A stretch of DNA of 64,000 nucleotides from Candidatus Omnitrophota bacterium (lineage in GTDB: Bacteria; Omnitrophota; Gorgyraeia; 2-01-FULL-45-10). The DNA lies in the NCBI GenBank assembly GCA_030695905.1, contig JAUYOL010000036.1, positions 54,814-118,813 on the forward strand, given 5' to 3'. The translations under genes were made by a program, and so were the position numbers. This document shows positions 1-40,270 of this stretch, piece by piece. The stretch's first letter is position 1. Every line of letters starts with the position of its first letter. The notes beneath the pieces were generated by a model. The model saw only the letters and a program-made list of their open reading frames with translations. It had not been told where the DNA came from and ran no database searches.

Positions 1-263
1 ATAAAACAATCGTCCTCGATCTTAATACCCCTGTGGATGAGGGCCTTGCTCATGATCTTTACATTGTTGCCTACCACAACTTTCCGGTCGATGAATACAC
101 CGTTACCTATTACACAATCTTCTCCTATTGCGGCATCACGCATGATCTGCGAAAAATGCCAGACCGCGGTCCCCTTTCCTATCCTGGCAGATCTATCCAC
201 TACAGCTGTTTTTGCTATGGTAACGCCCTTACCCGGATTTATCTTAGATTCTCTTTTGCCCAT
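1..263 (-). CDS. Hexapeptide-repeat (left-handed beta-helix) sugar N-/O-acyltransferase, N-terminal part; gene continues past window start
   Basis: Minus-strand translation from ATG at 263 gives MGKRESKINPGKGVTIAKTAVVDRSARIGKGTAVWHFSQIMRDAAIGEDCVIGNGVFIDRKVVVGNNVKIMSKALIHRG..., imperfect [LIV]-G-x-x-x-x hexapeptide repeats typical of PglD/WbpD/NeuD-type acetyltransferases. Absent from the ORF track because no stop lies inside the window. Overlaps the stop of the upstream gene by about 25 nt. Confidence 0.5.
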   Translation of the reverse strand, partial: MGKRESKINPGKGVTIAKTAVVDRSARIGKGTAVWHFSQIMRDAAIGEDCVIGNGVFIDRKVVVGNNVKIMSKALIHRGIKIEDDCF

Positions 264-1213
264 TCTACGTTTCTCCTCAATCCTTCCTCGATACCGATTT
301 TCGGTTTCCAGCCGAATAGTCTTTCTGCCAGGCCGTAATTACAATTCAATTTTCTAACCTGTGCCGCCCTGTCGGCAGTATGCACTATCCTGGAATCGCT
401 GCCTGAGATGTCTATTATCTTCTTTGCGATATAATTCACACTGACATCCTTACCATTTCCAAAGTTCACTGCATTTCCCACCGCTTTCGGATGAGAGCCC
501 ATAACAAGGAAGGCATCGATCATATCATCAACATATGTAAAATCCCTGGTCTGTTTGCCGTCACCGTGTATCGTCAATGTTTCGCCTTTCAGTGCAAGGT
601 CTATAAATTTCGGTATGACATCGTAAGTATGACGCGGCCCATAAGTATTAAATGGTCTTATAATAGCAACCGGTATGTGATAGGTATTCCAATAGGCATA
701 ACAATATCGGTCAGCAGCTACTTTGCTTGCCGCATATGGCGATGATGGATAAAGAGGGTGCTCTTCACTGATTCTCCTGCCCAGCGTCATTCCGTATATC
801 TCGCTCGACGAAGTGCATACGATCCTTTTTGTGCACTTCGTTTCCATAACAGCATGCAACATGTTCAGCGTCCCTAAAACATTAGTTTCCATTACTTCTA
901 AGGGATGCGTAAAGGAATTAGGCACATAAGCATCGGCCGCGAGATGGAATATAATCTCCGGACAATTATTCTTTACCAGCGTCCTGCAGTCAGCACTTGC
1001 TATATCGCCCGTTATTATCTCTGCAAACCTTCTTTCCAGCGGCTTTATGTTCTTGAGGTTATATTGAGTAGTCCCTATGGTAGAATTACCTCGCACATAA
1101 ACCGAGACTTTGGCGCCATCCGCAAGCAGTCTTTCCGCAAGATGCGAACCCATAAAACCGTCGGCCCCCGTAACCAATATTCTTTTACTTTTATAAAAAC
1201 TTTTCATCAACAA
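239..1213 (-). CDS. NAD-dependent epimerase/dehydratase (extended SDR), UDP-glucuronate decarboxylase (UXS / ArnA C-domain)-like
   Basis: N-terminal Rossmann motif ILVTGADGFMGSHLAERLL. TSSSEIYG (Ser-rich catalytic strand as in UXS, not the D/E of 4,6-dehydratases). YAASK YxxxK motif. GDGKQTRDFTYVDD motif shared by UXS, ArnA-C and RmlB. Confidence 0.7.
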   Translation of the reverse strand: MLMKSFYKSKRILVTGADGFMGSHLAERLLADGAKVSVYVRGNSTIGTTQYNLKNIKPLERRFAEIITGDIASADCRTLVKNNCPEIIFHLAADAYVPNSFTHPLEVMETNVLGTLNMLHAVMETKCTKRIVCTSSSEIYGMTLGRRISEEHPLYPSSPYAASKVAADRYCYAYWNTYHIPVAIIRPFNTYGPRHTYDVIPKFIDLALKGETLTIHGDGKQTRDFTYVDDMIDAFLVMGSHPKAVGNAVNFGNGKDVSVNYIAKKIIDISGSDSRIVHTADRAAQVRKLNCNYGLAERLFGWKPKIGIEEGLRRNVEWAKENLR

Positions 1214-2928
1214 TCCCCTTTCATTTTTACAATAAATTTTTTCATTATTTTTCTTATTGGAGGCCCTTTTAACTCTTCTGCAGGAGTAACCCGTTCAAGA
1301 TCAATTAATCGCCTTACGAACCTTTTAAGCATTTTATAACAATTCTCTTTTACAATGCTACCTAAAAAAGCGCTGCTCGGAAAGCCTGTTATGCATATGG
1401 CGCTGGTTGGATAGCAATTCTCGGCAGGTCTGCCTCTCCACCATTTATAAAATAACGTCATGTTGGAAGGTATGAGGGATTTTTTGGAAATAGCGTATTC
1501 CAAAATATTATTCAGTATGATCGGCACTTCTTTATATTTACTTGTATGAGCATACACGATAACGGGAAGGCCGCATGAGAGCATCTCATCTATAGCTCTC
1601 TTGTAATATGTTGTTATCTTATCGATATCCTTCATTCCCGCGTTTAAAAATAATTCGGGAGCTACGGGAAAGACCGGAACCTGCAGGACATTCGATATCC
1701 TGCTGCCCAAGCTGGGATATGTTGGAAGGCCCAAGTAATCATATGAAAACTCCGAAGAGTACTCATAGCCTTCGTCTTCTAATGCGCGCGAGAGCCCCGG
1801 ATTCCACCTTCCTGCGGGAGAAACGAAGCCCTTTGTAGGAATGCCGAGGCCATCAAAAAATAACCGCGCCTTTTTAATATTATGGCGGTTGCTTTCATAA
1901 TCGCCGTAGGTGTGATGATAAAACCCATGCGATTGTATATCGATACCCTCGTTGTGCCATCTTTTTATTAAGTCCTGTTTATCGGAAAAATTATCTGCAT
2001 TGACAAATATGGTTATTGCATCCCGGTATTTAGTAAGCAAAGAGCTGAATGCAGAGATAGTATCCTCATGATATTCGTCTGCATCTATGCGCAAACAAAA
2101 TATATTCGGATAGTCGATCTTCATGCCCTTCATGTAAGTAATAAGCGGCTTCTTTGCCACCTCTTCCACAACCGACACTGATCCGTCTCCAAAAACTTTG
2201 AGCACCGAATCGCGCTTCCGCCATTCTGACAGCCGTTTCTTTAGAGAGGCTTTTTCTTCGGGACGTGCCCTCCCGTATGTCTTTGAGAAATTACTGTCCT
2301 GCACCGAATAGACCTTAACTCCTGCCTCGATCCGGGAGATGGCCTCGTTTATTTTTTTCGCTCCCAGGTATATATTTTTTATCCTCAGACCGCCTATGGT
2401 ATCACAAGGGTGTACACGCAGCCTTTCCTGTACTATTACATCGCCGGTATCGAGAGATTCGTCTATGAAATGGATTGAGACGCCGACCCTGTCAGGCTCA
2501 TTATTGTAAAGGGCCCAAAACTCTGAGTCCGAACCGCGATAGAACGGCAGTATTCCAGAATGAAGATTTATAGCGCCTGCCGGCGCTATAGAGAATACCT
2601 CCTTCTTTAGTTTCCTCGTCCCGACAACCACAATCAGGTCGGGCCTGATCGAATTAAGAAAATCTACACTATCAGGATTATTGATATTTTCCGTAAACTT
2701 TACCTTTACTCCCCGAAAATCCCCGGCCATTTCTTCGAAACTTCCGTATTTTAATCTTCCCGCTGCTTTTAATAAAAGGCTTTTTATATCCGTCCTTAAT
2801 CGCTCTACGGGCTTTTTCGCTCCGCCTTTTTCATACACTATGGCGCTTACTGAACGGCCCATCCTTAAAAGTTCTTCGGCCACTATCCTGCCGTCTATAA
2901 TATCGCTTGTTAATATAGCCAGCTTCAT
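1207..2928 (-). CDS. Bifunctional protein: N-terminal formyltransferase domain (Fmt/ArnA-N/WbkC-like) fused to C-terminal polysaccharide deacetylase (NodB/ArnD-like) domain
   Basis: NLHSGILPFYRGSDSEFWALYNNE...HFIDESLDTGDV matches the N10-formyl-THF transferase catalytic region (N-x-H-x-SLLP-x-x-RG ... D-x-G-x-D). The C-terminal half carries RIDADEYHEDT and SHGFYHH metal-binding motifs of the NodB-type carbohydrate esterase 4 fold. 573 aa; 7-nt overlap with the downstream SDR gene. Confidence 0.6.
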   Translation of the reverse strand: MKLAILTSDIIDGRIVAEELLRMGRSVSAIVYEKGGAKKPVERLRTDIKSLLLKAAGRLKYGSFEEMAGDFRGVKVKFTENINNPDSVDFLNSIRPDLIVVVGTRKLKKEVFSIAPAGAINLHSGILPFYRGSDSEFWALYNNEPDRVGVSIHFIDESLDTGDVIVQERLRVHPCDTIGGLRIKNIYLGAKKINEAISRIEAGVKVYSVQDSNFSKTYGRARPEEKASLKKRLSEWRKRDSVLKVFGDGSVSVVEEVAKKPLITYMKGMKIDYPNIFCLRIDADEYHEDTISAFSSLLTKYRDAITIFVNADNFSDKQDLIKRWHNEGIDIQSHGFYHHTYGDYESNRHNIKKARLFFDGLGIPTKGFVSPAGRWNPGLSRALEDEGYEYSSEFSYDYLGLPTYPSLGSRISNVLQVPVFPVAPELFLNAGMKDIDKITTYYKRAIDEMLSCGLPVIVYAHTSKYKEVPIILNNILEYAISKKSLIPSNMTLFYKWWRGRPAENCYPTSAICITGFPSSAFLGSIVKENCYKMLKRFVRRLIDLERVTPAEELKGPPIRKIMKKFIVKMKGDC

Positions 2929-3845
2929 TTTTCCGCCTCAAATATCTGTCTTATCTTTTTGTCGGATACCGCTATTGCCCGCAAGACATCTCTTCTACGG
3001 CGGATGACCCTGGGCAACATGGAAAGCGCCCACAGGCTGCCGGCAACCAGGTCAGAACGCATGCGTAAGACATTGTAAATGATCAGGAGTGGATATAAGA
3101 ATATATTGGAAAAAAGAATCGCCGGGTCATGTATATTTTTCCATACAAATAGATACGCGTTTCGCGCCGCCATCTTCTGCCGCCTCCTCTCGCCATAGAC
3201 CTTCTTGAAAGATGCGGAATCTTCATGATACGCTACTGCGCTCTCCTCATAAACACACAGCCATCCCCTCTGCCATGCCCTATAGCACAGGTCCATGTCT
3301 TCGTATGTGCCCGGCAGGTATATTGGGTCATAGCCTCCCAGTGCCATGAATTTTTCTCTGTCATACGCGGCAGTGCTTCCCACGAAAAAGGTATAATCAT
3401 TTTTATTCATATTCTTTAACTTATTCCTGAACAATCCCGTTCTAACTGAAAAATCCATACATCCGCCGGTTATGTTCACACCCTCCTTATCCAGGATCTT
3501 TGGCGCAGCCACGAAAACCTTATCATCATTCAATCTCTCTATCAGGCGATCTATGCAGCCCGGCGCCATGTAAGCATCGTTATTCAAAAGAAGTATTATC
3601 TTTTCGGGTATCGTTCCCAAAAAATCATTGTATGATGCCACAATACGGTTGACCTTTGCAACCACAACATTAACTGAAGGAAAGTTCTCTTTTATAAAAG
3701 CGACGCTATTGTCGCTGCTCTTATTGTCAAGGACCGTAACTTTAACATTATGAGATGAGTTCCCCGCTTCTTTCACGACAAGCGGTAGATACTCCTTCAA
3801 TATATCTACGCCGTTATAATTCAATATTACTATATGAGCATCCAT
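2925..3845 (-). CDS. Glycosyltransferase family 2 (GT-A fold)
   Basis: 306-aa ORF; N-terminal VILNYNGVDILKEYL...LDNKSSDNS...LLNNDAY pattern (GT2 DxD region), then YDREKFMALGGYD typical of WbbL-type GT2 enzymes. Confidence 0.65.
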   Translation of the reverse strand: MDAHIVILNYNGVDILKEYLPLVVKEAGNSSHNVKVTVLDNKSSDNSVAFIKENFPSVNVVVAKVNRIVASYNDFLGTIPEKIILLLNNDAYMAPGCIDRLIERLNDDKVFVAAPKILDKEGVNITGGCMDFSVRTGLFRNKLKNMNKNDYTFFVGSTAAYDREKFMALGGYDPIYLPGTYEDMDLCYRAWQRGWLCVYEESAVAYHEDSASFKKVYGERRRQKMAARNAYLFVWKNIHDPAILFSNIFLYPLLIIYNVLRMRSDLVAGSLWALSMLPRVIRRRRDVLRAIAVSDKKIRQIFEAEK

Positions 3846-3855
3846 CTCTAATACC

Positions 3856-5418
3856 TTAGTCCTTTACCGCTGCTTTTGAATAAGTGCTCCGTACTATATA
3901 GGTAAGCGAAAATGCGACGGCTATGACAAGTAGCAATAACAGGCCAAAGACCTGCATATTATATTCGGACCTTATACCAAGCACCTTTAAAAACCAAAAA
4001 TCAAAATTATTATAACCAGACATACTACCTCTCACAGGAGAGATAAGTCTATAGTCGGGATTATATACAAACGGAATGTCTAACCCCTTTGTAATAAATA
4101 TTATACGGGTAATAACCATCTTCCATCCTCCCAGGATGGGTGAAAGATCCGGAATAAAATTTACCATGTATTCCGGGATGCCAAGCTTTTCTTTGACAAA
4201 GAAATAAAATTTTGACTGATTTATAAGCATGCACGGAAGCATGATGAAAAAACCGGCAATAGACAAAACCCACGCCGCTGATTTTGCGGTTAAATTTTTA
4301 TTATTTTCCAGAAAATCGCCTATCAAGAATATCAGAAATGCGACAGACGGCAAGAGATAGCGCGGCCCCCAGGCAAAGAGGGACCCGCGCCTGAAAGACA
4401 TGGCAAAAAATATAAGGCTGGATATGAAGATAAGCAGAAAAAGGACCGCCTCTTTTTTTCTTTTCCCGGAAATTCCTGCCAAGCCTATAAAAGACAGGAT
4501 AATGGGAAGATTAAAGATAAAAAATCCTTTTCCCGTGCTTATCAGATAATAATATAAGCCCTTTAGCACATGTGGCGCTTCCGCCACGCGCCCGGTGACC
4601 GCGAGCGCTTCCCTACTCCCGAATTTTAATAATTTTCCGTAAATAACATAATTATATGCTGTTATCAAAACAAGGAATACGGCTAAAACCGTTAACAATA
4701 CAGAGGCATCCTTAAGAATCTCCGCCTTGGCCCGCGCTCCGCTGAATATCAGGCAACACGCATAAATAGTAAAGGCCGGCAGGAAAATTATTGCGGTTGA
4801 CTTTGTAAAGACCGATAGCCCTATCGCAGTTCCTGCTAATAATAGATATTTTATTTCAGCGGAATTTTTGTACTTCAAGATAAAATAAAAAGCGAAAAGC
4901 ATGAATAATATCATGACCGGCTCCTCAAACCCGGTCCTCGAATATGCGGGGGCCATTGTTGCCAGACCGTAGATGAAGGCCAGGATAATAGAAATACGCC
5001 TTGAAAAAAAAAGATTTGTGGAAATAATAAATATCAGCAGACAATTTATTGCCGATACAAGAGGGTTGGAAAAAGAAACAAAGAACATTGTTATGAAATC
5101 ATGCGGGATGTTTTTAAAAAAATGCGCGGTTATATGACCTGTGTAAAAAAATACCGAAAGGATAACAGGCACGGCCAGACCTCCTCTGGAGCTGTATGTA
5201 TTTCCGCCACTTCCCTCAATGCCCGACTTTTTCATATAGCCAAACCCATCTATATCGGTAGGGCTGTCATTAAATGCCAGGCTATGATTTAGCACGATGC
5301 TTTTTGCGGTAAGGTAATCCTCATAACCGTCTCCGCCGTAATGACCGATTGAAAATAAACAATACAAAGACATAAAGAATACCGCTATGGCTATGGCGCA
5401 CATTCTTTGATTATTCAT
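3856..5418 (-). CDS. Polytopic membrane glycosyltransferase, GT-C fold (PMT_2/ArnT-like)
   Basis: More than 10 predicted TM helices plus periplasmic loops. Start moved to internal Met (MNNQRM...) preceded by AAGGAG 9 nt upstream; the annotated longer ORF (to 5445) overlaps the upstream gene by 35 nt. Confidence 0.45.
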   Translation of the reverse strand: MNNQRMCAIAIAVFFMSLYCLFSIGHYGGDGYEDYLTAKSIVLNHSLAFNDSPTDIDGFGYMKKSGIEGSGGNTYSSRGGLAVPVILSVFFYTGHITAHFFKNIPHDFITMFFVSFSNPLVSAINCLLIFIISTNLFFSRRISIILAFIYGLATMAPAYSRTGFEEPVMILFMLFAFYFILKYKNSAEIKYLLLAGTAIGLSVFTKSTAIIFLPAFTIYACCLIFSGARAKAEILKDASVLLTVLAVFLVLITAYNYVIYGKLLKFGSREALAVTGRVAEAPHVLKGLYYYLISTGKGFFIFNLPIILSFIGLAGISGKRKKEAVLFLLIFISSLIFFAMSFRRGSLFAWGPRYLLPSVAFLIFLIGDFLENNKNLTAKSAAWVLSIAGFFIMLPCMLINQSKFYFFVKEKLGIPEYMVNFIPDLSPILGGWKMVITRIIFITKGLDIPFVYNPDYRLISPVRGSMSGYNNFDFWFLKVLGIRSEYNMQVFGLLLLLVIAVAFSLTYIVRSTYSKAAVKD

Positions 5419-6352
5419 GCGAAAGAGCTCCTTTTTTCTTATCAAAACCGTGCCTCAATAAGATAAAACTGAATACAGGCCCCAATATGAACGTCAATGT
5501 CATCGTTATTATTCTGTCGGTAAGAGTCGCGAGCGCGCCGGATGCGAATGAGACATCGGTCAATGTAGAGACAGCTCCTACCGCAGCTTCTTTGATCCCG
5601 TAGGCGCCCGGGACTATGCTCATGAAATGCGTTATGATATTAAATGGAGCTATAAGCACGCAGGAAGTGAATGTAACGGGCAAAGAAAATATCCTGAATA
5701 GCACAAAATAACGCGCCGCCATAGACAATATTATCAGGAGATCCCAGAAAGAAAGGATCGTGATTGTCCTGGCGTCTTTACGAAGCACTTCCCATCCTTC
5801 AAAAAATTCATTTATCTTTACAAAGAGGCCCTTCTCGGGGAGTTTAATCCTCGGCATTAAAAAAAGCACCAGAGACCCTGCGATCATGCCAAAAAATAGC
5901 ACTAGAAAAATTATTTTATCTATGCGGTGCGGCAGACCGGAGCATAAACTGAAAGCGAAACCAACCAATCCCGAAGCAAGGATCGTGATCAATCCTGTTG
6001 TGATCAATATACCCATGTATTTATTATAATCCAGATCATACTTGTTTTTTAAATACAGGCCGCAGGCCGCAGTGCCGCTTTTTGGGGCGAGATAATTATA
6101 GAAATTATTTACGCATGACATGCCGAACCATTCCTTAAATAAAAGCCTTATATTGAACGACTCCAGTATCTTCTTGGTCTTAAGCCCAAGGCATACTTTA
6201 TTAGCAATATTAAGCAGCACCAGCAAAACAAGGAAATACGGCTTTATTGAGACCGCCTCTTTGATCTGATTAAAGTTCTTCTTTATATAAAAGGCAAACG
6301 CTGCCGTTATAATAATAATCAGCACTAGTTGTGCTATGTTTTTTTTAGACAT
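5411..6352 (-). CDS. Flippase-like integral membrane protein (lysylphosphatidylglycerol-synthase TM-region / UPF0104 family)
   Basis: 313 aa, about 8 TM helices, no soluble domain. Resembles the flippase-like domain commonly adjacent to GT2 polyprenyl-phosphate glycosyltransferases. Confidence 0.45.
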   Translation of the reverse strand: MSKKNIAQLVLIIIITAAFAFYIKKNFNQIKEAVSIKPYFLVLLVLLNIANKVCLGLKTKKILESFNIRLLFKEWFGMSCVNNFYNYLAPKSGTAACGLYLKNKYDLDYNKYMGILITTGLITILASGLVGFAFSLCSGLPHRIDKIIFLVLFFGMIAGSLVLFLMPRIKLPEKGLFVKINEFFEGWEVLRKDARTITILSFWDLLIILSMAARYFVLFRIFSLPVTFTSCVLIAPFNIITHFMSIVPGAYGIKEAAVGAVSTLTDVSFASGALATLTDRIITMTLTFILGPVFSFILLRHGFDKKKGALSHE

Positions 6353-6974
6353 ATTTTCCGATGGCCTTTTCCAAATAATTTTTTACCACACCTTTGATAT
6401 TGTCCATACTGCCTTCGGCTATCCTCACATTAGGCACTGCCCTGTACATATCGTCATACAGAACGCTCTTGACTATGAAGTATTCCTTATCGTATTCCCT
6501 TTTTCTGTCATAAGCCAGGGCCGGCTCCGACCTTAGAAAAAATACTATGTCCGGCTGTATTATACATTTCTTAAACATGACAAGGAAACCTTTTCTCATA
6601 ATGCCCAAATACACGCCCTGCACGATATCGTCATAAAAATATCTGTCCGTAACTATGTTATGCTGTATATTATTTTTATATCTGTGATACTGCAAGTTAA
6701 AACACAAAAGATTGATGAACAGAACCATCTTTTTCATGCATTTCGAAATAAAAATAGATATACCGCCTTTTTTCTTTCTGAGATTTTCTTCCAGAGAGCG
6801 TTGTGCGTTTTTTGAAACTTTCCCGATAACCTTATGGAGTATCTTATGATAAAAGGAATCCCGTATAATATGCGAATATTCTGCCGTAATATTTCTTTTT
6901 CTTAAATAATCCAAGACAAATTCAGCAGCTGTAGTTTTGCCTGAACCATCGATCCCCGAAAAAGCTATTATCAC
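6345..6974 (-). CDS. P-loop nucleoside/nucleotide kinase, thymidylate-kinase-like fold
   Basis: N-terminal IIAFSGIDGSGKTT Walker A, identical in form to the dTMP kinase signature. 209 aa. 8-nt overlap with the downstream gene and 2-nt gap to upstream rtcB-like gene. Confidence 0.5.
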   Translation of the reverse strand: MIIAFSGIDGSGKTTAAEFVLDYLRKRNITAEYSHIIRDSFYHKILHKVIGKVSKNAQRSLEENLRKKKGGISIFISKCMKKMVLFINLLCFNLQYHRYKNNIQHNIVTDRYFYDDIVQGVYLGIMRKGFLVMFKKCIIQPDIVFFLRSEPALAYDRKREYDKEYFIVKSVLYDDMYRAVPNVRIAEGSMDNIKGVVKNYLEKAIGKYV

Positions 6975-6975
6975 T

Positions 6976-8568
6976 TTATCTCCACCCTTTAAGGTCCGCT
7001 AACGGCCGTAGCCTGGCCACCGGCTCTGCTATATTATTTTTTGAGATAACATCCAATATTTTATCTACATCCTTAAATGCCTTAGGCGCTTCTTCCGCGA
7101 TATAACCATTGCCATAATCGTAAATCTTGACATTGTTTCCGCGCACTTCATCGATCACATTCTTTGCGTCAAAAATTTGCCTTGCCGCACCTCTATCCAC
7201 CAGCCTTCCCGTGCCATGGCATGTCGAATAATAGGAGCCGGCGCATCCTTTTGTGGCAGCGCATAAAAAGGAATGCCGCCCCAAAGAACTGGGTAAAAGG
7301 ACCGGCTGCCCTGTCTTCGAAAAAACAGGATGGCCGCTGAAATAGCGCGGCGGATATGCCCTGCAGGCGCCGTTCCTGTGCACATAATATTCCTCTCCGT
7401 CTATCCGTTCTTTCTGTAATGCATCGTGGTTACCGTCATACAGGATATTCAGGCAACCGCCGTCCTTGCCAAACGTCTTTTGCAGTGCGCGCTGTATGAC
7501 AGAGGCCATATACGCCCTGTTCGCGTAACCAAAATTAATAGCGCAATAAGTACTTATAAGGTACGAACGCCCTTCTTCGTTATTTGCGTCTATCCCTTCG
7601 AATATAAAATTCTTTTTTTTGTTCCACTTATCCACCTTCCAGTATACAGTTGATTTGATCCTGTTTAAATTTTTATTAACTGACCTCAAGAAATCCCTGA
7701 GAATATATGATGACCCGAACATGCTGTAATAAAGCTTTTTATATATCTGCTGTGCGCCGAAAAGCTTTTTTGCTTTCTGAGAATAGAAATCGAAGATCGA
7801 CTGTCCAAAATCTCTTGAATCGCTGTGTATCATGAAGCAAACCTGGCTCTTTTTAATGCCGAAAAGGCCGGCTACATCTTTATTGATTATATCGTCGATT
7901 ACCTGAAGTTCTATAAAGTGATTGCCATAACCCAGGACCCCTATGCTGAAAAGGCCTATGTTCTGACACGCCTTCGGCACATAGGACATTATTTCAGTTA
8001 TATCCGTTTTATCATTCTTAAAAAGAGACCCGTTGTTCTCAAAATTCATCAGGTCCGACGGATCAATGCCATGTTTTTCTACGGCCCAGCCCGCGCCTTC
8101 TTTTATGATATGCTTAAGATCGTCATGCGAAATTATAGGAGCATTTCTCATGGAGACCGAGATGTTCTTCTGCAAATATCCGAATATAGAATCCAGCGCG
8201 TTTTCGTTTATATCACCTGACGAAAATTCCGTCTTAATAAAAGACATTGCGCAGTTCGCGTTCACGAACTTCGGAAATATCCTGTCCTTTGAAAGAACGA
8301 CTACGCCCGTAGGCGTATGGTAGGAATATTTGAAATGAACATCCGGCAGGGCCACTATCGGCCTGACAACGCCCTCGGTCCCGGCCATCTTCTCAAGTAT
8401 AGTAGACGTATTTTCGTCTATACCGTAATCCGGGTGTGTAAATATCCTGACATTGCTGCTCATCGTTAAATCATCCCCCGATCTCAGAGTATATCTTATC
8501 GTACTCGGCCGCCATTGCGTCCATTGTAAAACATCTCTTAACACCATCCTGAGATTTATTTGCGACAT
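6976..8568 (-). CDS. rtcB: RtcB-family 3'-phosphate RNA ligase homolog (530 aa, N-terminal extension)
   Basis: Ordered RtcB motifs: ALPDVHFKYSYHTPTGVV (cf. MPDVHLGKGSTIG), NANCAM (metal Cys), LGYGNHFIE (GNHFIE), MIHSDSRDFG (HSGSRG), YDGNHDAL (HHN), STCHGTGR (SHGAGR), APKAFKDVD (PMAYKDID). Confidence 0.8.
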   Translation of the reverse strand: MSQINLRMVLRDVLQWTQWRPSTIRYTLRSGDDLTMSSNVRIFTHPDYGIDENTSTILEKMAGTEGVVRPIVALPDVHFKYSYHTPTGVVVLSKDRIFPKFVNANCAMSFIKTEFSSGDINENALDSIFGYLQKNISVSMRNAPIISHDDLKHIIKEGAGWAVEKHGIDPSDLMNFENNGSLFKNDKTDITEIMSYVPKACQNIGLFSIGVLGYGNHFIELQVIDDIINKDVAGLFGIKKSQVCFMIHSDSRDFGQSIFDFYSQKAKKLFGAQQIYKKLYYSMFGSSYILRDFLRSVNKNLNRIKSTVYWKVDKWNKKKNFIFEGIDANNEEGRSYLISTYCAINFGYANRAYMASVIQRALQKTFGKDGGCLNILYDGNHDALQKERIDGEEYYVHRNGACRAYPPRYFSGHPVFSKTGQPVLLPSSLGRHSFLCAATKGCAGSYYSTCHGTGRLVDRGAARQIFDAKNVIDEVRGNNVKIYDYGNGYIAEEAPKAFKDVDKILDVISKNNIAEPVARLRPLADLKGWR

Positions 8569-9595
8569 CCGAGTAAAACTTTGCGTCCTTAAGACATCTT
8601 ATCAGGTTTTCAGCATATGCATCCGCGCCATCTCCGCTTATTTTAATGCCGATGCCGTGCCTTTCAAGCTCGTCCAACGGCGCGATATTGCCGTATATTA
8701 CAGGCTTGCCTAATACGGCTAATTCGAGTAAAACAAGCGGTATCTCTAAAATTCCTACCATCGGGCGCCTTACAGGCATGATGCCTGCCGCGCAACTATT
8801 AAAAAGCGCGGGCATATCCTCAACAGTATCCAGCAACGTAAAGTTTTCTACGCCATTATTTTTCAGCAATACGGCAAACTCTTTCTTTAGCTTCGCGTCT
8901 TCTTTCGTCCTCACGCGGCATGCCATCACGAATTCGGCATTTCGTATTTTTTTCGTAACCAGTAAAGCTATTTTCAGTAGCTCAGAAAATGAGTAGGAGT
9001 CATTTAATATCTTATATGTGCCCGGATATATTACGCGTGGTAAAGGCGCGTGTTTTAAATCGGAACCGCGCGGCGCGCCAAACCGCTGCGTCTCGACTCC
9101 CGGATAGACCCTGATTACATTTTTCACGCCGAGTGCGGTAAGTTTTTCTTTAGCGTAATCGGAGTGCACCACTACACGGTCGGCAAAGAATAAAGACGAT
9201 ATCGGCACGTTAGCGTTCTTATTAAATAAAGTATGTATCGAAGTTAATATCTGCACCGATTTCTTTCCATTCTTTTTTACGAATCTACTGTAAAAGCCGG
9301 AAAAATACGGCTGCGGAGTGATAAAAAATTGGAACACGTCTATTTTTTTAGCGATTAAGACTGTTATAAATAGCACATAAAGCTTCTGCAGAATCGACAT
9401 GCTGTGCCTGCCCGGCTTCTGGAAAAGCGAAGGAATAAATGCTATGTTTGTTTCCGGAGCAAATTTATTTCCAAGCGATGACACAAAATAAAATAAATGC
9501 TTTTTTATGCGCTGCGCAATACCCATGACAATATTTTTCGCGCCATCATTGTAAGGCGGACTGATAGGGGCCATTGTTATCGTAAATATCTTCAC
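8471..9595 (-). CDS. Glycosyltransferase, GT-B fold (family 1/4-like)
   Basis: 374 aa; C-terminal ...GILEIPLVLLELAVLGKPVIYGN... resembles the GT4 E-x7-E donor-binding region; N-terminal half is Rossmann-like. Confidence 0.5.
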   Translation of the reverse strand: MKIFTITMAPISPPYNDGAKNIVMGIAQRIKKHLFYFVSSLGNKFAPETNIAFIPSLFQKPGRHSMSILQKLYVLFITVLIAKKIDVFQFFITPQPYFSGFYSRFVKKNGKKSVQILTSIHTLFNKNANVPISSLFFADRVVVHSDYAKEKLTALGVKNVIRVYPGVETQRFGAPRGSDLKHAPLPRVIYPGTYKILNDSYSFSELLKIALLVTKKIRNAEFVMACRVRTKEDAKLKKEFAVLLKNNGVENFTLLDTVEDMPALFNSCAAGIMPVRRPMVGILEIPLVLLELAVLGKPVIYGNIAPLDELERHGIGIKISGDGADAYAENLIRCLKDAKFYSDVANKSQDGVKRCFTMDAMAAEYDKIYSEIGG

Positions 9596-11076
9596 TTTTT
9601 CCGCGCCTTTGGACTGATAAATACGTCCTTTAATCTTGATGCGATACCTGATTCGACTATCACCTTTTGAAATATTTCCGTGTAGTAAAGCCGCGCAAGG
9701 ATCTTGCTGATAAAAACCGGCAGCCCTATGCCACTGAATATGTTTTCCATCTCAGCTGAAAATTTAAGTTTTGTTTTCAGGGTATGTTTTTTCGCTTTTT
9801 TATTAAATTCATTATATAATTTTTTTCTTAAGCCGGCTGACATTTCAGGGGTCTCAAACACAGGGTTATTGACCCAGTGCGAAGAATGATTAAGATATGT
9901 TTCTTCTTTCTCTCTGAAATATTTGTTCTGTTTGACCCATTCATAAAGCTCGGTTCCGGGAAACGGTATGGGGTTATAAAATCTTATATCAAATACCGGA
10001 TATTTAACGGCCAATTGCAAAGATTCATAGGCGTCTTTTTCGGTCTCATGAGGCAGGCCCAATATAAAAAACAAAGTGACCATATAACCAAGGCCACATG
10101 CGTCGCTTATGGCCTTTTCCACGTCTGAAAGCTTTTCGCCCTTCTTAATAATGCTCAGCATCTTTTCGCTGCCGCTCTCTACGCCAAAAGCCAGGTAATT
10201 AAAACCCGCTTCCTTCATTGCGATAAGAGTTTGTTTGTCTATTGTATCTGCTCTTATCCCATTTCTGCAGCTTAGTATGAGCCCGGAGAGTTTTCTTTTT
10301 TTGATATCAGCGCATATATCCAATACCCTCTGTTTCTGAAAAGAAAAGTTGTCATCCACTATGTTGAATATCCTCATACCGTCTTTTTTATACCAGTACT
10401 CAATTTCGTCGACGACCGAAGACGGCGACCTTGTCCTTAACTTTCTCCCTATCGTGACCTTAACCGGACAAAATATGCAGCTATAAGGGCAACCTCTGCT
10501 TGTCAAAAGCGGTATGAAGCGTGGGTACTTATCCTTTTCTAAATATTCGTACTTTGGGAAGCCTATGTTATCAAGATCGATCTTGAAATCCCTGTCTCCG
10601 GAATACAGAACCTTGCCGCCTTCCCTGTAAAGCAACCCCTTTATCTCTTCCGGATTTTTCATACCGCTGCATAGTTCCAATATAGTATCTTCGCCTTCAA
10701 GCGCAACGCCATAATCTATTGAAATGCATTCTTCAAGGGTCCGCGCCCTAAAAGTGGATATGTGCGGCCCGCCTGCCACTATCTTTATATTTTTAAAGCT
10801 ATCTTTTATAAAATCGGCAAGCGCATAATGATCCCTATATTTGAAGCTCATCATACTTATGCCGATAAGGTCCGGATTGAACGAGCTTATGGACTCAAGA
10901 AGATCCCTATTGCTATAACCAAGGGACATGTCAAAGACCTTATGCGCTATTTTTCCTTTCTTTAACGATTCGGAAATATAGCCCAGGCCTGCCGGCAGCC
11001 CCACATATTCATAATGCGACTGCTTATAGTTCGGCCGTATCAGCAATACTCTTTTATAAGCATTTAAAGGCTTCAT
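9592..11076 (-). CDS. Cobalamin (B12)-binding radical SAM enzyme (class B)
   Basis: N-terminal Rossmann-type B12-binding domain (VLLIRPNY...DLIGISMM...). Radical-SAM cluster motif LLTSRGCPYSCIFCPV (CxxxCxxC). 494 aa. Confidence 0.8.
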   Translation of the reverse strand: MKPLNAYKRVLLIRPNYKQSHYEYVGLPAGLGYISESLKKGKIAHKVFDMSLGYSNRDLLESISSFNPDLIGISMMSFKYRDHYALADFIKDSFKNIKIVAGGPHISTFRARTLEECISIDYGVALEGEDTILELCSGMKNPEEIKGLLYREGGKVLYSGDRDFKIDLDNIGFPKYEYLEKDKYPRFIPLLTSRGCPYSCIFCPVKVTIGRKLRTRSPSSVVDEIEYWYKKDGMRIFNIVDDNFSFQKQRVLDICADIKKRKLSGLILSCRNGIRADTIDKQTLIAMKEAGFNYLAFGVESGSEKMLSIIKKGEKLSDVEKAISDACGLGYMVTLFFILGLPHETEKDAYESLQLAVKYPVFDIRFYNPIPFPGTELYEWVKQNKYFREKEETYLNHSSHWVNNPVFETPEMSAGLRKKLYNEFNKKAKKHTLKTKLKFSAEMENIFSGIGLPVFISKILARLYYTEIFQKVIVESGIASRLKDVFISPKARKK

Positions 11077-12179
11077 CGCTTCTCCATGAGCTGTGCATAC
11101 TGAGCAAGATAGTCGCCCGCTATCCTGTCCCAGCTGAAATTATACATGACATATTCTCTGGATTTTTTTGCCAGGTCCAGCCTTAAATCCGGCCTGGAAA
11201 GCAATGAACTCACGGTTTCGGCAAAAGCATTGTAATCGCCTTCCTTTATAAGAATCCCGTTTTTATTGTTATGCAGGGCTTCCGCGATACCATCCACTTC
11301 ATACGCTACAACAGGCAGAGCATTCATCCCGGCCTCAAGCACAACCAAACCAAAACCTTCAGCGTCATCCTTTACCTTAATATTAGGCATTACAAAAACA
11401 TCGCTTGCCGTAAATAATGCATTATAAAGACCGCTGTCATGTTCAACGTATCCCAGCCTGTGCGCCTTTCCGAAGAATCCCGACCTTCTAATGGCATTAT
11501 CTATCTCGGGCGCCTGCGGACCATCGCCTGCCACCAAAAAAAGTATATCTTTGTTTTTTTCATTGATCCTCGGCATCCCCTCTTCAATAAACTCTTTTAT
11601 GCCCTTTTTTGGCACGAGCCTGGAAACAGAAAGAATAATCTTTTTATCTGTTAACATAATCCCAAAATGCGCCGCTATTGCCCTACGGGCAATATCTTTG
11701 TCCAAACAGTTATTAATACGGCCCTTTATATCAATGCCATTGGGTATGACCGCAAGCTTATTCTCCGGAATGCCCCGCGCGGCCAGCCTTTCTTTTATAT
11801 AATTGCTTACACAAATTATCCTATCGAGCTTTTTTGCCGGACACAATACTAAAAGATCGTACAAAATACCCGCATACGCCGAATCCCTTCCGTGCGATAC
11901 AGACAGAACGGGCTTATTGAATAATATCTTGAGTAAAAATCCGAGAGGAGAAAGCACCAGGTCGCCTAGCTGAATAACATCCACCTTATTTGTAATTACC
12001 AATAAAACCGATACCATAAAGGCGTATGCCATAAAAAGCGGTAGAAAGAGCTGCGAGTGCCCCCATGCTATCAAATACACCTTATTACCTGCGGCAATAC
12101 TGTCATAAAATTGCCTGCTTTGGGTCTGCATCCCGCCTATGCTGGGTGGAAATTTACGCGTTATATATAAAATGTTCAT
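11073..12179 (-). CDS. Glycosyltransferase family 4 (GT-B)
   Basis: Canonical EGFGLVVLEAGMNALPVVAYEVDGIAE (E-x7-E) motif. 368 aa. Confidence 0.8.
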   Translation of the reverse strand: MNILYITRKFPPSIGGMQTQSRQFYDSIAAGNKVYLIAWGHSQLFLPLFMAYAFMVSVLLVITNKVDVIQLGDLVLSPLGFLLKILFNKPVLSVSHGRDSAYAGILYDLLVLCPAKKLDRIICVSNYIKERLAARGIPENKLAVIPNGIDIKGRINNCLDKDIARRAIAAHFGIMLTDKKIILSVSRLVPKKGIKEFIEEGMPRINEKNKDILFLVAGDGPQAPEIDNAIRRSGFFGKAHRLGYVEHDSGLYNALFTASDVFVMPNIKVKDDAEGFGLVVLEAGMNALPVVAYEVDGIAEALHNNKNGILIKEGDYNAFAETVSSLLSRPDLRLDLAKKSREYVMYNFSWDRIAGDYLAQYAQLMEKR

Positions 12180-13124
12180 TTAAGGCTTAGACTGCTCCTT
12201 TCTCTGCCTATACAGGATCTCTTCCGATAGTTTCCTGTTAGCGGCAATAATATCAGCCAGAAGACCTGTAAATATCAGCTGAGCTCCTATTATGGTCAGG
12301 ATCAGCGCCAGGATAAGAGATTGCACGTGCCCGCCCCTCTTTACTCCGAAAAAGAAGAAATACAGGTATCTGCCACCTAATATGGCTGCACCGCCTAAGA
12401 ATAACGACCCTATCTTAACAAAGAACTTCATCGGCTCATACATAAGATATATGCGCAATATCGTTGCAATGGACCTCAGAATATATGAGGCGGTATTTTT
12501 AATCAATCGCGATTCCCGCAGCTTTGGGTTTGCTTTTATATCTATATGCGCCACAGGGATTTCCTTCCTCCCCGCCTGAATCACCGTTTCCAAAGTATAG
12601 GTGTAAGTAGAAAATACATTTAACCGCAATGCAGCTTCTCTCGTATAAGCCCTGAATCCGCTTGTCACATCGGGGATAGCGGTATTCGAGAACTTCCTGA
12701 CCACCCAGCTTCCGAGCTGCTGCAAGACTTTTTTCAGCAACGAAAAATGCTGTATCGCGAACATGTCCCTGCAGCCTATGGTAATCTCTGCCTTGCCGTT
12801 TAATATAGGCCCTATAAGCCGCGGAATATCCTCGCCCTTGTACTGATTATCGCCATCCGTATTCACTATTATATCTGCGCCAAGAGCTAGGCTCTTTTCC
12901 AAGCCTCTCCTGAATGCCTCGGCCAACCCCCTATGCGAAGGCATGTCTACTATATAATCAACGCCCAGTTTTTTTGCGGTTTCAACGGTAGCATCGCCGC
13001 TCCCGTCATTTATGACTAATATTTTAATATCGTCGATACCTTTTATCCTTCTTGGTATGCTGTTTATAACTACCGGTAAAGTATTCTCTTCGTTATAACA
13101 CGGTATCTGAACTACGAGTTTCAT
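12180..13124 (-). CDS. GT2 polyprenyl-phosphate glycosyltransferase (DPM1/ArnC/CsbB-like) with C-terminal TM helices
   Basis: VVQIPCYNEENTL...ILVINDGSGDATVE...DGDNQY (DxD) typical of dolichyl/undecaprenyl-phosphate sugar synthases. Two C-terminal TM helices (IGSLFLGGAAILGG..., LILALILTIIGAQLIFTGLL). Confidence 0.8.
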   Translation of the reverse strand: MKLVVQIPCYNEENTLPVVINSIPRRIKGIDDIKILVINDGSGDATVETAKKLGVDYIVDMPSHRGLAEAFRRGLEKSLALGADIIVNTDGDNQYKGEDIPRLIGPILNGKAEITIGCRDMFAIQHFSLLKKVLQQLGSWVVRKFSNTAIPDVTSGFRAYTREAALRLNVFSTYTYTLETVIQAGRKEIPVAHIDIKANPKLRESRLIKNTASYILRSIATILRIYLMYEPMKFFVKIGSLFLGGAAILGGRYLYFFFFGVKRGGHVQSLILALILTIIGAQLIFTGLLADIIAANRKLSEEILYRQRKEQSKP

Positions 13125-15651: not shown

Positions 15652-16263
15652 TTATCCTTTTCGTTTTTTAAACCACATCCAGGTATAGATAAGATGGTCC
15701 ATTATCATGTGGATATCCTCAACGGGCCCATATTCGCCTTTCGGCGTATTCACATGTACGCAGATATCGCTTATTTCCTTTAATTTACCTCCGTCAAAGC
15801 CGACAAGGCCTATAACTCTGCCTCCTCGTTTTTTGACCCATCTTGCGGCATTTACAACATTAGGGGAATTGCCGCTTGCCGAAATGGCTACAAGCTTATC
15901 GCCCCGCTTGTAATAGAGATTGAGCTGTCTGATAAAAATATTGTCATAACCGGAATCGTTTGCAATGGCAGTTATGGATGAAACATTGTCGGTAAGAGAT
16001 ATTGCGCGAAACGGCAGCTTCTCATCCTTGCGCGTCCCTAATCCAAAATCGTTTGCCATGTGCGAAGCCGTTGATGCAGAGCCGCCGTTGCCTATGAAAA
16101 ACACGGTATTGCGATTTTTATGCGCCTTGTCAAATTCCCTGACGATACCTTCTATCACACCCATGTCAAGCCGGTCCATCAGGCCGCACAGATACCTGAA
16201 ATAACCCTTGCTGAACTGGTGTATATCGGCCGAGTTATTAAAAAGAGTTTCTATATTTTCCAT
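15652..16263 (-). CDS. gmhA: SIS-domain sedoheptulose-7-phosphate isomerase (GmhA-like)
   Basis: 203 aa; VFFIGNGGSASTASHMANDF and AISASGNSPNVV match the GmhA phosphoheptose isomerase signature. Confidence 0.7.
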   Translation of the reverse strand: MENIETLFNNSADIHQFSKGYFRYLCGLMDRLDMGVIEGIVREFDKAHKNRNTVFFIGNGGSASTASHMANDFGLGTRKDEKLPFRAISLTDNVSSITAIANDSGYDNIFIRQLNLYYKRGDKLVAISASGNSPNVVNAARWVKKRGGRVIGLVGFDGGKLKEISDICVHVNTPKGEYGPVEDIHMIMDHLIYTWMWFKKRKG

Positions 16264-22134: not shown

Positions 22135-22951
22135 ATTTTAAGTTGGTTTTACCCAGCATGCCGTATTTCTCCGGCATCAGGACGTTAAAAGGTATATGTA
22201 TTATATCTATAACCGGATCGACCGACCTTACAAACTCGTGTATTTGGGCCAGATTACCGGGAGTATCAGTGACTTTTGGAATCAGGGGCACCCTTACGGA
22301 TACATGTTTCTTTGCCTCATGCAAACGCCTAAAATTATCCAAAATACATCCGTTTGACCTGCCTGTATATTTTTCATGAAGCTCGGGATCGATAAATTTC
22401 AGATCAAACAGGAAAAGATCGACAAAAGGCAAAATTTTCATGAAGGCTTCGGGCTCGGAATAACCGCTGGTATCCAAGGCCACGTTTATTCCGTTTTTCT
22501 CCGCAAGACTTGCCAATTCACAGGAAAAGTCTATCTGAAACAGCGGTTCGCCCCCGGAAATCGTTACCCCTCCTCCGGACATCTCATAATAACTTTTATC
22601 GCTAAGCGCCTGATGAATAATCTCCTCGGCTGGCAATTCCATGCCTGACCATAAAAGCGCTTTCAAACTGCAATTATTGACACACAAACCGCAACGATCG
22701 CAATCATCGCTTTTAAAAACAATCTTATCCTGCCAGTCAAAACATTTTTTCGAACAAAGCTCCACGCATCTGCGGCACCCTGCGCAACGCTCGCGCAAAA
22801 ACAAGACCTCGGAAAACCGCGGGATATTTTCCGGATTATGGCACCAGACACAATTAAGGGGGCAGCCTTTTAAAAAAATCGTGGTACGGATGCCCGGCCC
22901 GTCATGCAGGGAAAACTTTTGTACCCTGGTAATAAAACCTTTTGCGCTCAT
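22121..22951 (-). CDS. Glycyl-radical-enzyme activating enzyme (PflA family) with two ferredoxin-like 4Fe-4S motifs
   Basis: HDGPGIRTTIFLKGCPLNCVWCHNPE (classic GRE-AE CxxxCxxC). Two additional clusters, CAGCRRCVELCSKKC and CDRCGLCVNNCS. 4-nt overlap with the upstream GRE gene. Confidence 0.85.
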   Translation of the reverse strand: MSAKGFITRVQKFSLHDGPGIRTTIFLKGCPLNCVWCHNPENIPRFSEVLFLRERCAGCRRCVELCSKKCFDWQDKIVFKSDDCDRCGLCVNNCSLKALLWSGMELPAEEIIHQALSDKSYYEMSGGGVTISGGEPLFQIDFSCELASLAEKNGINVALDTSGYSEPEAFMKILPFVDLFLFDLKFIDPELHEKYTGRSNGCILDNFRRLHEAKKHVSVRVPLIPKVTDTPGNLAQIHEFVRSVDPVIDIIHIPFNVLMPEKYGMLGKTNLKYETF

Positions 22952-40268: not shown

Positions 40269-40270
40269 CT

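Follow-up and report, generated by a model that had tools for sequence, protein, structure and literature searches.

Why does a homologue of the RNA ligase RtcB lie among genes for glycan synthesis, and what would it do there? The question is raised by a 64,000-nucleotide stretch of DNA from a Candidatus Omnitrophota bacterium (GenBank assembly GCA_030695905.1, contig JAUYOL010000036.1), here called the window, which over its entire length (1-64000) is a single co-directional run of about 55 glycan genes. All of its large open reading frames (ORFs), like the two Shine-Dalgarno-like runs described below, are on the minus strand. An annotation made from the letters of the window (the sequence-only reading) had placed an RtcB-family gene and a gene for a thymidylate-kinase-like P-loop protein at 6345-8568, and both were found there on the minus strand. 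From their conservation, gene linkage and active-site residues, an RNA-repair fold has probably been taken over here for the activation of a phosphorylated unit from which glycans are assembled. For the specific mechanism, in which the two proteins would form an activation module of the glycan operon and GMP would be transferred to a phosphorylated substrate, we rate the chances as about even.

The RtcB-like protein and its gene neighbours

The ORF at 6976-8568 matched the Pfam RtcB family (PF01139) with E = 3.9e-85 and 287 bits against a cut-off of 27, over profile positions 3-426 of 426. It encodes, in this order, the motifs LPDVH, NANC, GNHFIE, HSDSR, GNHD, CHGTGR and FKDVD. The earlier statement that all RtcB active-site blocks are present in order therefore stands for every motif listed, but the metal-2 ligand Asp95 (numbering of P. 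horikoshii RtcB) is an Asn in this protein. The AlphaFold2 (AF2) model reached a predicted local distance difference test (pLDDT) score of 91.8 and a predicted template modelling (pTM) score of 0.92. When it was compared with the PDB by Foldseek, all significant matches were RtcB chains, with E values down to 3e-36 and template modelling (TM) scores of 0.75-0.79 for RtcB from P. horikoshii (PhoRtcB) and human RTCB. The protein scored under both NCBIfam equivalog cut-offs for RtcB (NF007153, 152.7 versus 407; TIGR03073, 128.2 versus 271.8).

A length of 530 residues and an N-terminal extension of about 100 residues had been described for this protein. The open frame extends to 8568; from Met36 (ATG 8463-8461) the gene covers 6976..8463 and encodes 495 residues. 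The database protein P0001, encoded on a 252-kb contig of a Candidatus Omnitrophota metagenome-assembled genome (MAG), is 100% identical over 495 residues, and 50-odd relatives have 491-513 residues each. Solved archaeal and human-type RtcB chains have 481-507 residues, so that 495 is within the normal length. The Met36 codon is clear of the upstream glycosyltransferase family 4 (GT4) gene, and the Shine-Dalgarno-like run GGGGGA (8474..8479, by direct reading of the sequence), 10-16 nt before this ATG, backs the 495-residue start. Initiation at the far upstream ATG would run 98 nt into the GT4 gene. Because of the length of the relatives, the GGGGGA run and this overlap, we attribute the 530-residue length and the extension to an over-extended ORF. 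The interpretation offered in the sequence-only reading did not depend on the extension.

The genes are tightly packed, as had been noted. The GT4 stop codon (8473-8471) is followed by a gap of 7 nt, the RtcB-like stop codon (6978-6976) by a single nucleotide (not two, as first counted) before the GTG start of the kinase gene at 6974, and the kinase stop codon overlaps the start of the next gene, which encodes an LPG_synthase_TM protein. Within the end of the RtcB-like gene, 6-13 nt before the kinase GTG, a second Shine-Dalgarno-like run, GGGTGGAG, was read directly from the sequence at 6980..6987, which suggests translational coupling of the two genes.

Homologues with 38-100% identity to the RtcB-like protein, about 55 proteins, are referred to here as the clade; all others drop to about 30%. 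Exact protein look-up gave six contexts for the clade, a scan of metagenome contigs with a clade-specific segment of 53 residues added 18, and hidden Markov model scans of all ORFs followed by clustering at 90% identity left a non-redundant set of 19 loci. The sequence-only reading had proposed a search for the same gene pair in related glycan loci, and the pair was indeed found: the kinase gene directly follows the RtcB-like gene in all 15 non-redundant loci with at least 650 bp of downstream DNA (gap -95 to +22 nt), and two truncated loci show the kinase beginning after the RtcB-like gene. The gene directly upstream encodes a GT4 protein in 16 of the 19 loci, a family 2 glycosyltransferase (GT2) in two and a UDP-glucose dehydrogenase in one. 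All six looked-up contexts have the RtcB-like and then the thymidylate kinase (Tmk)-like gene within glycan genes. The gene order of the window is kept in two of them, which are Omnitrophota-like; two are archaeal contigs bearing ribosomal protein L37e, LSM or an eEF1A-type factor, and one holds an RtcB-like protein 38% identical to that of the window and retains the pair. As a negative control we used 79 other RtcB loci (L009-L087) from a species-representative genome collection, most of them canonical. They came from a scan with the full clade alignment whose LGxGNHF pattern matched all RtcBs, with one clade locus (L008, the same as L006) among the matches listed. None of the 79 has a member of the kinase family within 10 kb. 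Fusions of RtcB and the Tmk-like protein, searched with a concatenated query, were absent among the 120 of 658 matches listed, all of which have at most 513 residues.

An ordinary RNA ligase of tRNA splicing or RNA repair might merely be carried in these glycan operons, the kinase then being a nucleotide or polynucleotide kinase of RNA or nucleotide metabolism. The full-length family match, the RtcB fold and the complete catalytic core agree with this, as do the database annotations of the clade proteins as RtcB or tRNA-splicing ligase. The gene linkage points the other way: the association with kinase and GT4 holds down to 38% identity, on archaeal and bacterial contigs, and recurs in a second RtcB lineage (see below). 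The usual partners of RtcB are missing as well. No rtcA, rtcR, archease, prfH or tRNA-splicing genes were found in the Pfam tables of the annotated loci L001, L003, L005-L007, L088, L123 and the P0093 locus or among the annotated genes of the window, and tRNA and Rfam RNA scans of the window gave no match. A 5'-kinase would, moreover, counteract RtcB, since RtcB needs a 5'-OH end. The sequence-only reading had considered an inserted RNA-repair cassette, and had named a pair that stands free of glycan genes in most relatives as a finding that would speak against its inference. This was looked for and is not the case, and conservation of the pair in glycan operons of 19 non-redundant loci, archaeal contigs included, disfavours the cassette.

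The kinase gene (6345..6974, GTG start) encodes the 209-residue protein that had been predicted, with the dTMP-kinase-type Walker A motif FSGIDGSGKTT. Against Pfam Thymidylate_kin (PF02223) it scored 39 bits and passed the cut-off of 27; against the dTMP kinase equivalog TIGR00041 it scored 40.4 bits and failed the cut-off of 83.25. Further motifs are DRYFYD (D110, R111 and D115) and the lid residue R157, and G7, D9, G10, G12, K13, D110, R111 and R157 are invariant across 62 members of the family, with D115 also listed as invariant. For the AF2 model (pLDDT 90.7) the nearest folds were dTMP kinases and then deoxynucleoside kinases (TM 0.6-0.7, 14-20% identity). Residues of about 70-100 align with the segment by which Tmk binds thymine and dTMP, which we take to be a stacking Phe and an Arg in the helix that follows the P-loop domain. 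In the present family the sequence of this region is not conserved and is hydrophobic; residues 72-99 form a conserved hydrophobic helix whose 19-residue Kyte-Doolittle mean, taken for seven members, is 0.85 in P0154 and 1.4-1.9 in the other six. Judged by these scores and residues, the window kinase is not a Tmk orthologue, and its substrate could be hydrophobic. This is a large family, with 460 clusters at E <= 1e-30, and many of its proteins have 400-420 residues and consist of two tandem Tmk-like domains.

That the kinase merely recycles nucleotides, for instance by converting GMP released by RtcB to GDP, and makes no phosphorylated substrate at all, would be consistent with its Tmk fold and its conserved DRY motif and lid Arg, and nucleoside monophosphate (NMP) kinases do phosphorylate phosphates. 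We regard this as extremely improbable: the region that would correspond to the thymine/NMP site is unconserved and hydrophobic, the score is far under the dTMP kinase equivalog cut-off, and the occurrence of kinases fused to GT4 domains is hard to square with a housekeeping nucleotide kinase.

These fusions and the loci in which the kinase occurs without RtcB make the kinase family the strongest clue to function. In L089, L124 and L125 the kinase stands beside an NTP_transf_5 (Pol-beta-type) nucleotidyltransferase and GT4, and RtcB is absent. The order in L089, GT4 - NTP_transf_5 - kinase - LPG_synthase_TM - PMT_2, is that of the window with a nucleotidyltransferase in the RtcB slot. Three fusion proteins combine the same parts, namely P0316 (Tmk-like and NTP_transf_5), P0291 (Tmk-like, GT4 and NTP_transf_5) and P0264 (Tmk-like and GT4). 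On the basis of the RtcB-less loci and the fusions, kinase, nucleotidyltransferase and GT4 would constitute a functional unit in which RtcB takes the position of the nucleotidyltransferase in the window lineage.

The active site and the chemistry it would allow

Active-site residues were compared between 52 clade members and 47 canonical proteins in PhoRtcB numbering, with residue roles taken from published work (PMC9745838, PMC8051266). Retained in the clade are D65, H67, C98, N202, H203, E206, H234, H329, H404, R408 and K480. The GMP-accepting nucleophile H404 is a His in 47/47 canonical and 52/52 clade proteins (window H416, codon 7218-7216). The metal-1 ligands C98, H234 and H329 are kept throughout both groups and correspond to the invariant window residues C71 (codon 8253-8251), H213 and H346. 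The metal-2 ligand H203 is present in all 47 canonical and 51 of the 52 clade proteins, and N202, which anchors the 5'-OH and bridges to the GMP phosphate, is invariant in both. The guanine contacts E206 and K480, kept in canonical proteins, are found in 52/52 and 50/52 clade members (window E185 and K464), and R408 and R412, each Arg in 47/47 canonical proteins, in 52/52 and 48/52.

Other positions have changed. The metal-2 ligand D95 (47/47 canonical) is Asn in 49 of the 52 clade proteins (window N68, codon 8262-8260), and N330, which forms a hydrogen bond to the gamma-phosphate of GTP in all 47 canonical proteins, is Asp in every clade member (window H346-D347, corresponding to H329-N330, codons 7428-7423). 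The metal-2 ligand set of Asp95, Cys98 and His203 is thus incomplete in the clade, with Cys and His retained. D95 and N330 are both directed at metal 2 and at the gamma-phosphate of GTP (PMC9745838), and the two exchanges, D95N and N330D, may resemble a relocation of the metal-2 carboxylate. Conservation of the GTP-binding His and both metal sites, a point that had been singled out for checking, is therefore confirmed at the sequence level for His404 and metal 1 and breaks down at Asp95 of metal 2. R190, Q194 and H242 touch the 5'-OH strand in PhoRtcB, and N202 anchors the attacking 5'-OH (PMC8051266). R190 (contact to strand phosphate and base, Arg in 47/47 canonical proteins) is V, M, I, A or L in 51/52 clade members, Q194 (strand phosphate, Gln in 46/47) is Ser in 49/52, and H242, which packs on the 5' nucleobase and is His or Tyr in all 47 canonical proteins, is mostly Q, R or K. 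R238, a contact to the 5'-OH strand phosphates (47/47 canonical), is kept in 47/52 and is lost in divergent members and in the second lineage described below. As read from these residues, the guanylyltransferase core is intact and the site for the incoming polynucleotide is remodelled; we conclude that the protein very probably forms a His-GMP adduct from GTP and Mn2+ as canonical RtcB does.

A further exchange concerns G69, which is Gly in all 47 canonical proteins and Lys in all 52 clade members (window K45, codon 8331-8329). RtcB-like proteins with this Lys two residues past the His of the PD-x-H motif (PD-x-H-x-K versus PD-x-H-x-G) are called H-x-K forms here; L009 and L010 of the control set belong to them. 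The phylogenetic comparison that had been recommended separated the H-x-K forms from canonical RtcB in 50/50 neighbour-joining (NJ) bootstraps. The clade defined by D347 is monophyletic in the NJ tree, yet its bootstrap value is just 6/50 because divergent members shift position.

The sampled H-x-K lineages lie in glycan loci, bar one (L009, with two-component and HlyD neighbours). A second RtcB lineage, the DTAPNC lineage (about 30% identical), shows the order GT4 - RtcB - Tmk-like - flippase in three loci, labelled Moranbacteria, 'bacterium BMS3Abin15' and, in one case, without taxon. In another Omnitrophota MAG (L010, 9025-15662) an RtcB-like gene only 30% identical to that of the window is flanked by the genes of LPG_synthase_TM and of a GT-C-sized protein, and the locus is Arn-like, equivalent to that of the window, and lacks the Tmk-like gene; RtcB-like genes would accordingly have entered, or diverged within, this type of locus more than once. 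The RtcB-like gene adjoins a Polysacc_synt flippase in L110 and L111 and lies within a Wzy/Bac_transf locus in L126. In L118, L119 and L122 a distant RtcB-like gene with Cys98 replaced by Asp is directly upstream of a CDP-alcohol phosphotransferase gene (CDP-OH_P_transf). In these marine metagenome loci (L118, 9923-12080) the RtcB-like protein has 462 residues, Lys480 is replaced by Tyr, and PIG-L, WbqC, GT4 and asparagine synthase genes flank it.

For an ordinary RNA ligase, the loss of R190 and Q194 and the bootstrap separation of the H-x-K forms are difficult to explain, and canonical RtcBs are present in other Omnitrophota MAGs (P0085, P0091, P0095 and P0099). The basic insertion of the window protein would suit such an enzyme: residues of about 229-292 (~7779-7588) form, by AF2 model and composition, a basic/aromatic stretch of 64 residues with 15 Lys/Arg and 12 aromatic residues, which is helical with low confidence in the model and adds about 40 residues relative to solved RtcBs. 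Taken together with the gene linkage, we consider an RNA ligase without a role in the glycan operon quite unlikely.

In the activation mechanism we favour, the kinase would use ATP to phosphorylate a glycan building block X (a sugar, polyol or lipid-linked intermediate) to X-P. The RtcB-like enzyme would react with GTP and Mn2+ to give the covalent His416-GMP adduct, as in the first step of RtcB, and would then hand GMP to the phosphate of X-P, which would replace the RNA 3'-phosphate of the second step, to yield G(5')pp-X. This activated donor G-pp-X would be used by the adjacent upstream GT4 protein or by another transferase. We infer each of these chemical steps and the nature of X. There is some precedent for the individual steps. 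RtcB3 of Myxococcus xanthus reportedly caps 5'-phosphate ends, and RtcB is said to cap DNA 3'-phosphates, so the RtcB fold would be able to pass GMP to several kinds of phosphomonoester. Enzymes with a covalent His-NMP such as GalT make nucleoside diphosphate (NDP)-sugars. The sequence-only reading had suggested a repurposed nucleotidyltransferase of RtcB fold acting on a phosphorylated substrate made by the kinase. This suggestion, still an interpretation, fits all the comparative evidence, because a Pol-beta enzyme appears as the alternative partner, the kinase is fused to NTP_transf_5 and GT4, and the GTP/His machinery is kept with the polynucleotide contacts lost.

Several observations weigh against this proposal. 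Every catalytic residue for RNA ligation is present and R238 (47/52), R408 and R412 are kept too, so that an RNA substrate is conceivable, and the 64-residue basic/aromatic insertion would equally suit RNA binding. Kinases of the Tmk fold usually act on nucleotides rather than sugars. The NTP_transf_5 match in L089 lies under the Pfam cut-off (26 bits versus 31). Pol-beta nucleotidyltransferases usually nucleotidylate hydroxyls, not phosphates; the displacement therefore argues for a nucleotidyl-transfer step and not for identical chemistry. Finally, a conventional pair of a GHMP kinase and a PF00483 nucleotidyltransferase (NTP_transferase), HddA/HddC-like, is encoded at the far end of the window (61478-63201), so that ordinary sugar activation is available to the organism.

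The RtcB-like enzyme might instead carry out all three steps of the RtcB reaction as a glycan phosphodiester ligase: it would guanylylate a phosphate placed by the kinase on a glycan, sugar or lipid-linked intermediate, a hydroxyl of a second sugar or other acceptor would attack, the bridge would be sealed and GMP released, and no free GDP-X would appear. The gene linkage fits this equally well. Canonical RtcB does not let go of its ppG intermediate, N202 is invariant and R238 is kept in most members, and phosphodiester chemistry is suggested by a weak Glyphos_transf match in the locus (27240-28520) and by the CDP-OH_P_transf gene beside the L118 RtcB-like gene. A GT4 gene as constant neighbour, and kinases fused to GT4 and nucleotidyltransferase domains, rather suggest a soluble activated donor for a Leloir-type transferase; divergent members of the clade and the DTAPNC lineage have also lost R238. 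We hold such a ligase to be possible but doubtful. Equally tentative, and to be taken with more doubt than belief, is the generalization that the H-x-K superclade, with members in Omnitrophota, in at least one MAG of the Patescibacteria (Moranbacteria), on archaeal contigs and in marine bacteria, serves polysaccharide assembly, not RNA; in its boldest version His-GMP formation, a ppG-activated phosphate and hydroxyl attack would seal phosphodiesters in glycans or lipid-linked intermediates. We know of no counterpart in glycobiology to such GTP-driven 'glycan ligase' chemistry.

RtcB is regarded as acting on nucleic acids only. No description of an association of RtcB with a kinase and glycan genes was found in the searchable full-text literature, with a passing mention in a 2016 comparative-genomics paper on RNA repair systems being possible; a 2023 review of the RtcB family does not contain the word stem "glyc" (PMC10630183). 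The fold is known and so, probably, is the chemistry of the first step, while the biological role and the obligate partner appear to be undescribed. Activation or ligation of phosphorylated glycan units by the H-x-K branch, if true, would be a new catalytic use of the RtcB fold and a third, non-homologous route to sugar or alcohol activation beside GT-A-type nucleotidyltransferases and HIT enzymes. It would also mean that the "tRNA-splicing ligase" labels on this branch in metagenome-derived genomes need correcting, and would help to explain how surface glycans are built in Omnitrophota and in the archaea and Patescibacteria that have the module. The module of GT4, RtcB-like protein and kinase is compact and open to direct testing with recombinant proteins.

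The surrounding glycan locus

Directly upstream of the RtcB-like gene lies the GT4 gene (8471..9595; Pfam Glyco_trans_1_4 and Glycos_transf_1). Downstream of the pair follow genes for a flippase-like membrane protein (5411..6352; LPG_synthase_TM with 84 bits in Pfam, NCBIfam TIGR00374), which is kept in this place in Omnitrophota loci, and for a GT-C glycosyltransferase (3856..5445; PMT_2, ArnT-like) assigned by Pfam, the NCBIfam LA_3751/2 family and synteny. The PMT_2 family of GT-C transferases uses polyprenyl-phosphate-linked donors. These neighbours bear on a further explanation, in which kinase and RtcB-like enzyme would act on the lipid carrier, polyprenol or polyprenyl phosphate, for instance by guanylylating polyprenyl phosphate for attack by a sugar hydroxyl, and would feed the flippase-like and GT-C proteins. 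LPG_synthase_TM and PMT_2 directly follow the pair in Omnitrophota, the kinase has the same position in L089, its hydrophobic helix 72-99 occupies the part that normally forms the NMP site, and the insertion of the RtcB-like protein is amphipathic and basic. Neither protein has a clear transmembrane segment, though, archaeal and DTAPNC loci either have other neighbours in place of the flippase-like and GT-C genes or lack them, and the chemistry is without precedent; we judge action on the lipid carrier very unlikely.

Next comes an Arn-like set (239..3845), assigned by Pfam and NCBIfam and conserved in L003, L097, L099, L101 and L010. It comprises a GT2 (2925-3845), a formyltransferase-polysaccharide deacetylase fusion (1207-2928) and an NAD-dependent sugar dehydratase/epimerase (239-1213), and by these family matches the genes downstream of the pair resemble the Arn pathway. 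A conserved block upstream of the GT4 gene (9592..13124), recognized by family matches and synteny, encodes a B12-binding radical SAM protein (9592-11076), a second GT4 (11073-12179) and an AglJ/ArnC-like GT2 (12180-13124). Further upstream are genes for a methyltransferase, a phosphatase of the IMPase family, a 2-hydroxyacid dehydrogenase and a GmhA-like SIS isomerase, and for more radical SAM enzymes. Still farther along, the window encodes a glycyl-radical enzyme and its activase, the enzymes of a nonulosonic-acid pathway, four additional PMT_2 proteins along with YfhO and GT87, a carbamoyltransferase and the GHMP kinase with NTP_transferase.

The GmhA-like SIS isomerase (15652-16263) is encoded near the RtcB-like pair and 46 kb from the GHMP kinase pair. 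In L104, L106 and L107 the same gene lies a short way upstream of the three genes for GT4, RtcB-like protein and kinase, and SIS recurs in L104-L107. Together with the IMPase-family phosphatase it suggested that RtcB and Tmk might substitute for HddA and HddC in a GDP-heptose route. This candidate was weakened by the GHMP kinase and NTP_transferase pair and by the absence of SIS from many loci, and it was rejected.

The window is an unusually large, radical-SAM-rich surface-glycan locus. It encodes at least four B12-binding radical SAM proteins (9592, 17032, 20638 and 54710), three DegT aminotransferases and several methyltransferases, and five PMT_2 GT-C transferases (3856, 42343, 46241, 48639 and 56055) besides YfhO (44061) and GT87 (50020). 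At 22121-24960, inside the glycan locus, lie genes for a glycyl-radical enzyme of 670 residues (PFL-like and Gly_radical) and its radical SAM activase, which adjoin a short-chain dehydrogenase/reductase (SDR), a CTP_transf_3 cytidylyltransferase and an HpcH/HpaI aldolase; glycyl-radical enzymes are unusual in sugar-nucleotide biosynthesis. The nonulosonic acid pathway (32976-41275), of pseudaminic or legionaminic type, looks complete, with a HisF/HisH-like pair, NeuB, a GNAT fusion, CTP_transf_3, SDR, aldo-keto reductase, DegT and a PseB-like dehydratase; its region holds two CTP_transf_3 genes.

Three sizeable proteins are without a significant Pfam family: 27240-28520 (426 residues), 29988-31841 (617 residues) and 31831-32979 (382 residues). 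The first matches CDP-glycerol glycerophosphotransferase with a score under the threshold (Glyphos_transf, 21 bits versus 22.1), a hint of phosphodiester chemistry of the teichoic-acid kind in the locus. The carbamoyltransferase ORF (57805-58965) covers just positions 190-345 of its N-terminal domain profile and could be a truncated gene or the result of a mis-called start or a frameshift; intergenic gaps are few in the window, and one of about 430 nt (58966-59391) lies behind this ORF. Promoter-like sites in the window were near expectation (37 versus 31.6 expected from shuffles) and terminator-like sites were in excess (24 versus 12.6, standard deviation 3.9). For anti-phage defence, the Pfam scan of the window, made without a PADLOC run, gave just faint matches in conflict with GT4.

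Comparison with known systems

Canonical RtcB (P. horikoshii, E. coli and human RTCB) shares Pfam family and fold with the window protein, and the His nucleophile, the metal-1 Cys/His/His set, His203, Asn202, Glu206, Lys480 and Arg408/Arg412 are common to the clade. The window protein differs in that it is only 24-27% identical to solved RtcBs by Foldseek and about 28-33% to metagenomic canonical RtcBs, scores under the NCBIfam cut-offs and carries the low-confidence helical insertion. The clade has G69K, D95N with N330D, and replacements of R190, Q194 and H242, and its genomic context is glycan synthesis with a kinase, not rtcA/rtcR, archease or prfH. M. xanthus RtcB3 and the capping of DNA 3'-phosphates by RtcB come closer in that GMP reportedly goes to phosphomonoesters other than the RNA 3'-phosphate and the reaction may stop at the capped ppG product. 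Their substrates are nucleic acid ends, however, and no glycan link or kinase partner has been described for them.

In gene arrangement the window pair is like HddA/HddC (GDP-heptose), LicA/LicC (CDP-choline), AmgK/MurU (UDP-MurNAc) and Fkp (GDP-fucose), in which a kinase and an NTP-dependent nucleotidyltransferase occur side by side, beside the transferase that uses their product. Kinase and putative nucleotidyltransferase genes beside a transferase in a glycan locus are likewise what the clade loci contain. The known pairs consist of GHMP- or APH-type kinases and GT-A-like or cytidylyltransferase-type enzymes and form no covalent enzyme-NMP, whereas the window pair combines a Tmk fold with RtcB and would proceed via His-GMP. 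Neither window protein is homologous to a known sugar kinase (GHMP, APH or PfkB) or sugar-phosphate nucleotidyltransferase (PF00483 or cytidylyltransferase), their folds being Tmk-like and RtcB, and the resemblance is one of functional analogy only. GalT, the galactose-1-phosphate uridylyltransferase of the HIT superfamily, provides the chemical parallel of a covalent His-NMP that is attacked by a sugar phosphate to give an NDP-sugar. It has another fold, takes its NMP from UDP-glucose and not from an NTP, and has no binuclear metal site.

Tmk (TIGR00041/PF02223) and the window kinase have in common the fold, the GxDGxGKT P-loop, the D-R-Y motif and the lid Arg. In contrast to solved Tmks, to which it is 14-20% identical, the window kinase has a hydrophobic helix where the nucleobase segment would be expected, and its family is always found in glycan loci and is sometimes fused to GT4 or NTP_transf_5. 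For the remote Cys98-to-Asp branch, not for the window protein, the gene order in L118, L119 and L122 mirrors the arrangement of IPCT/DIPPS (a fusion of CTP:inositol-1-phosphate cytidylyltransferase and CDP-alcohol phosphotransferase), with a nucleotidyltransferase followed by a phospho-alcohol transferase.

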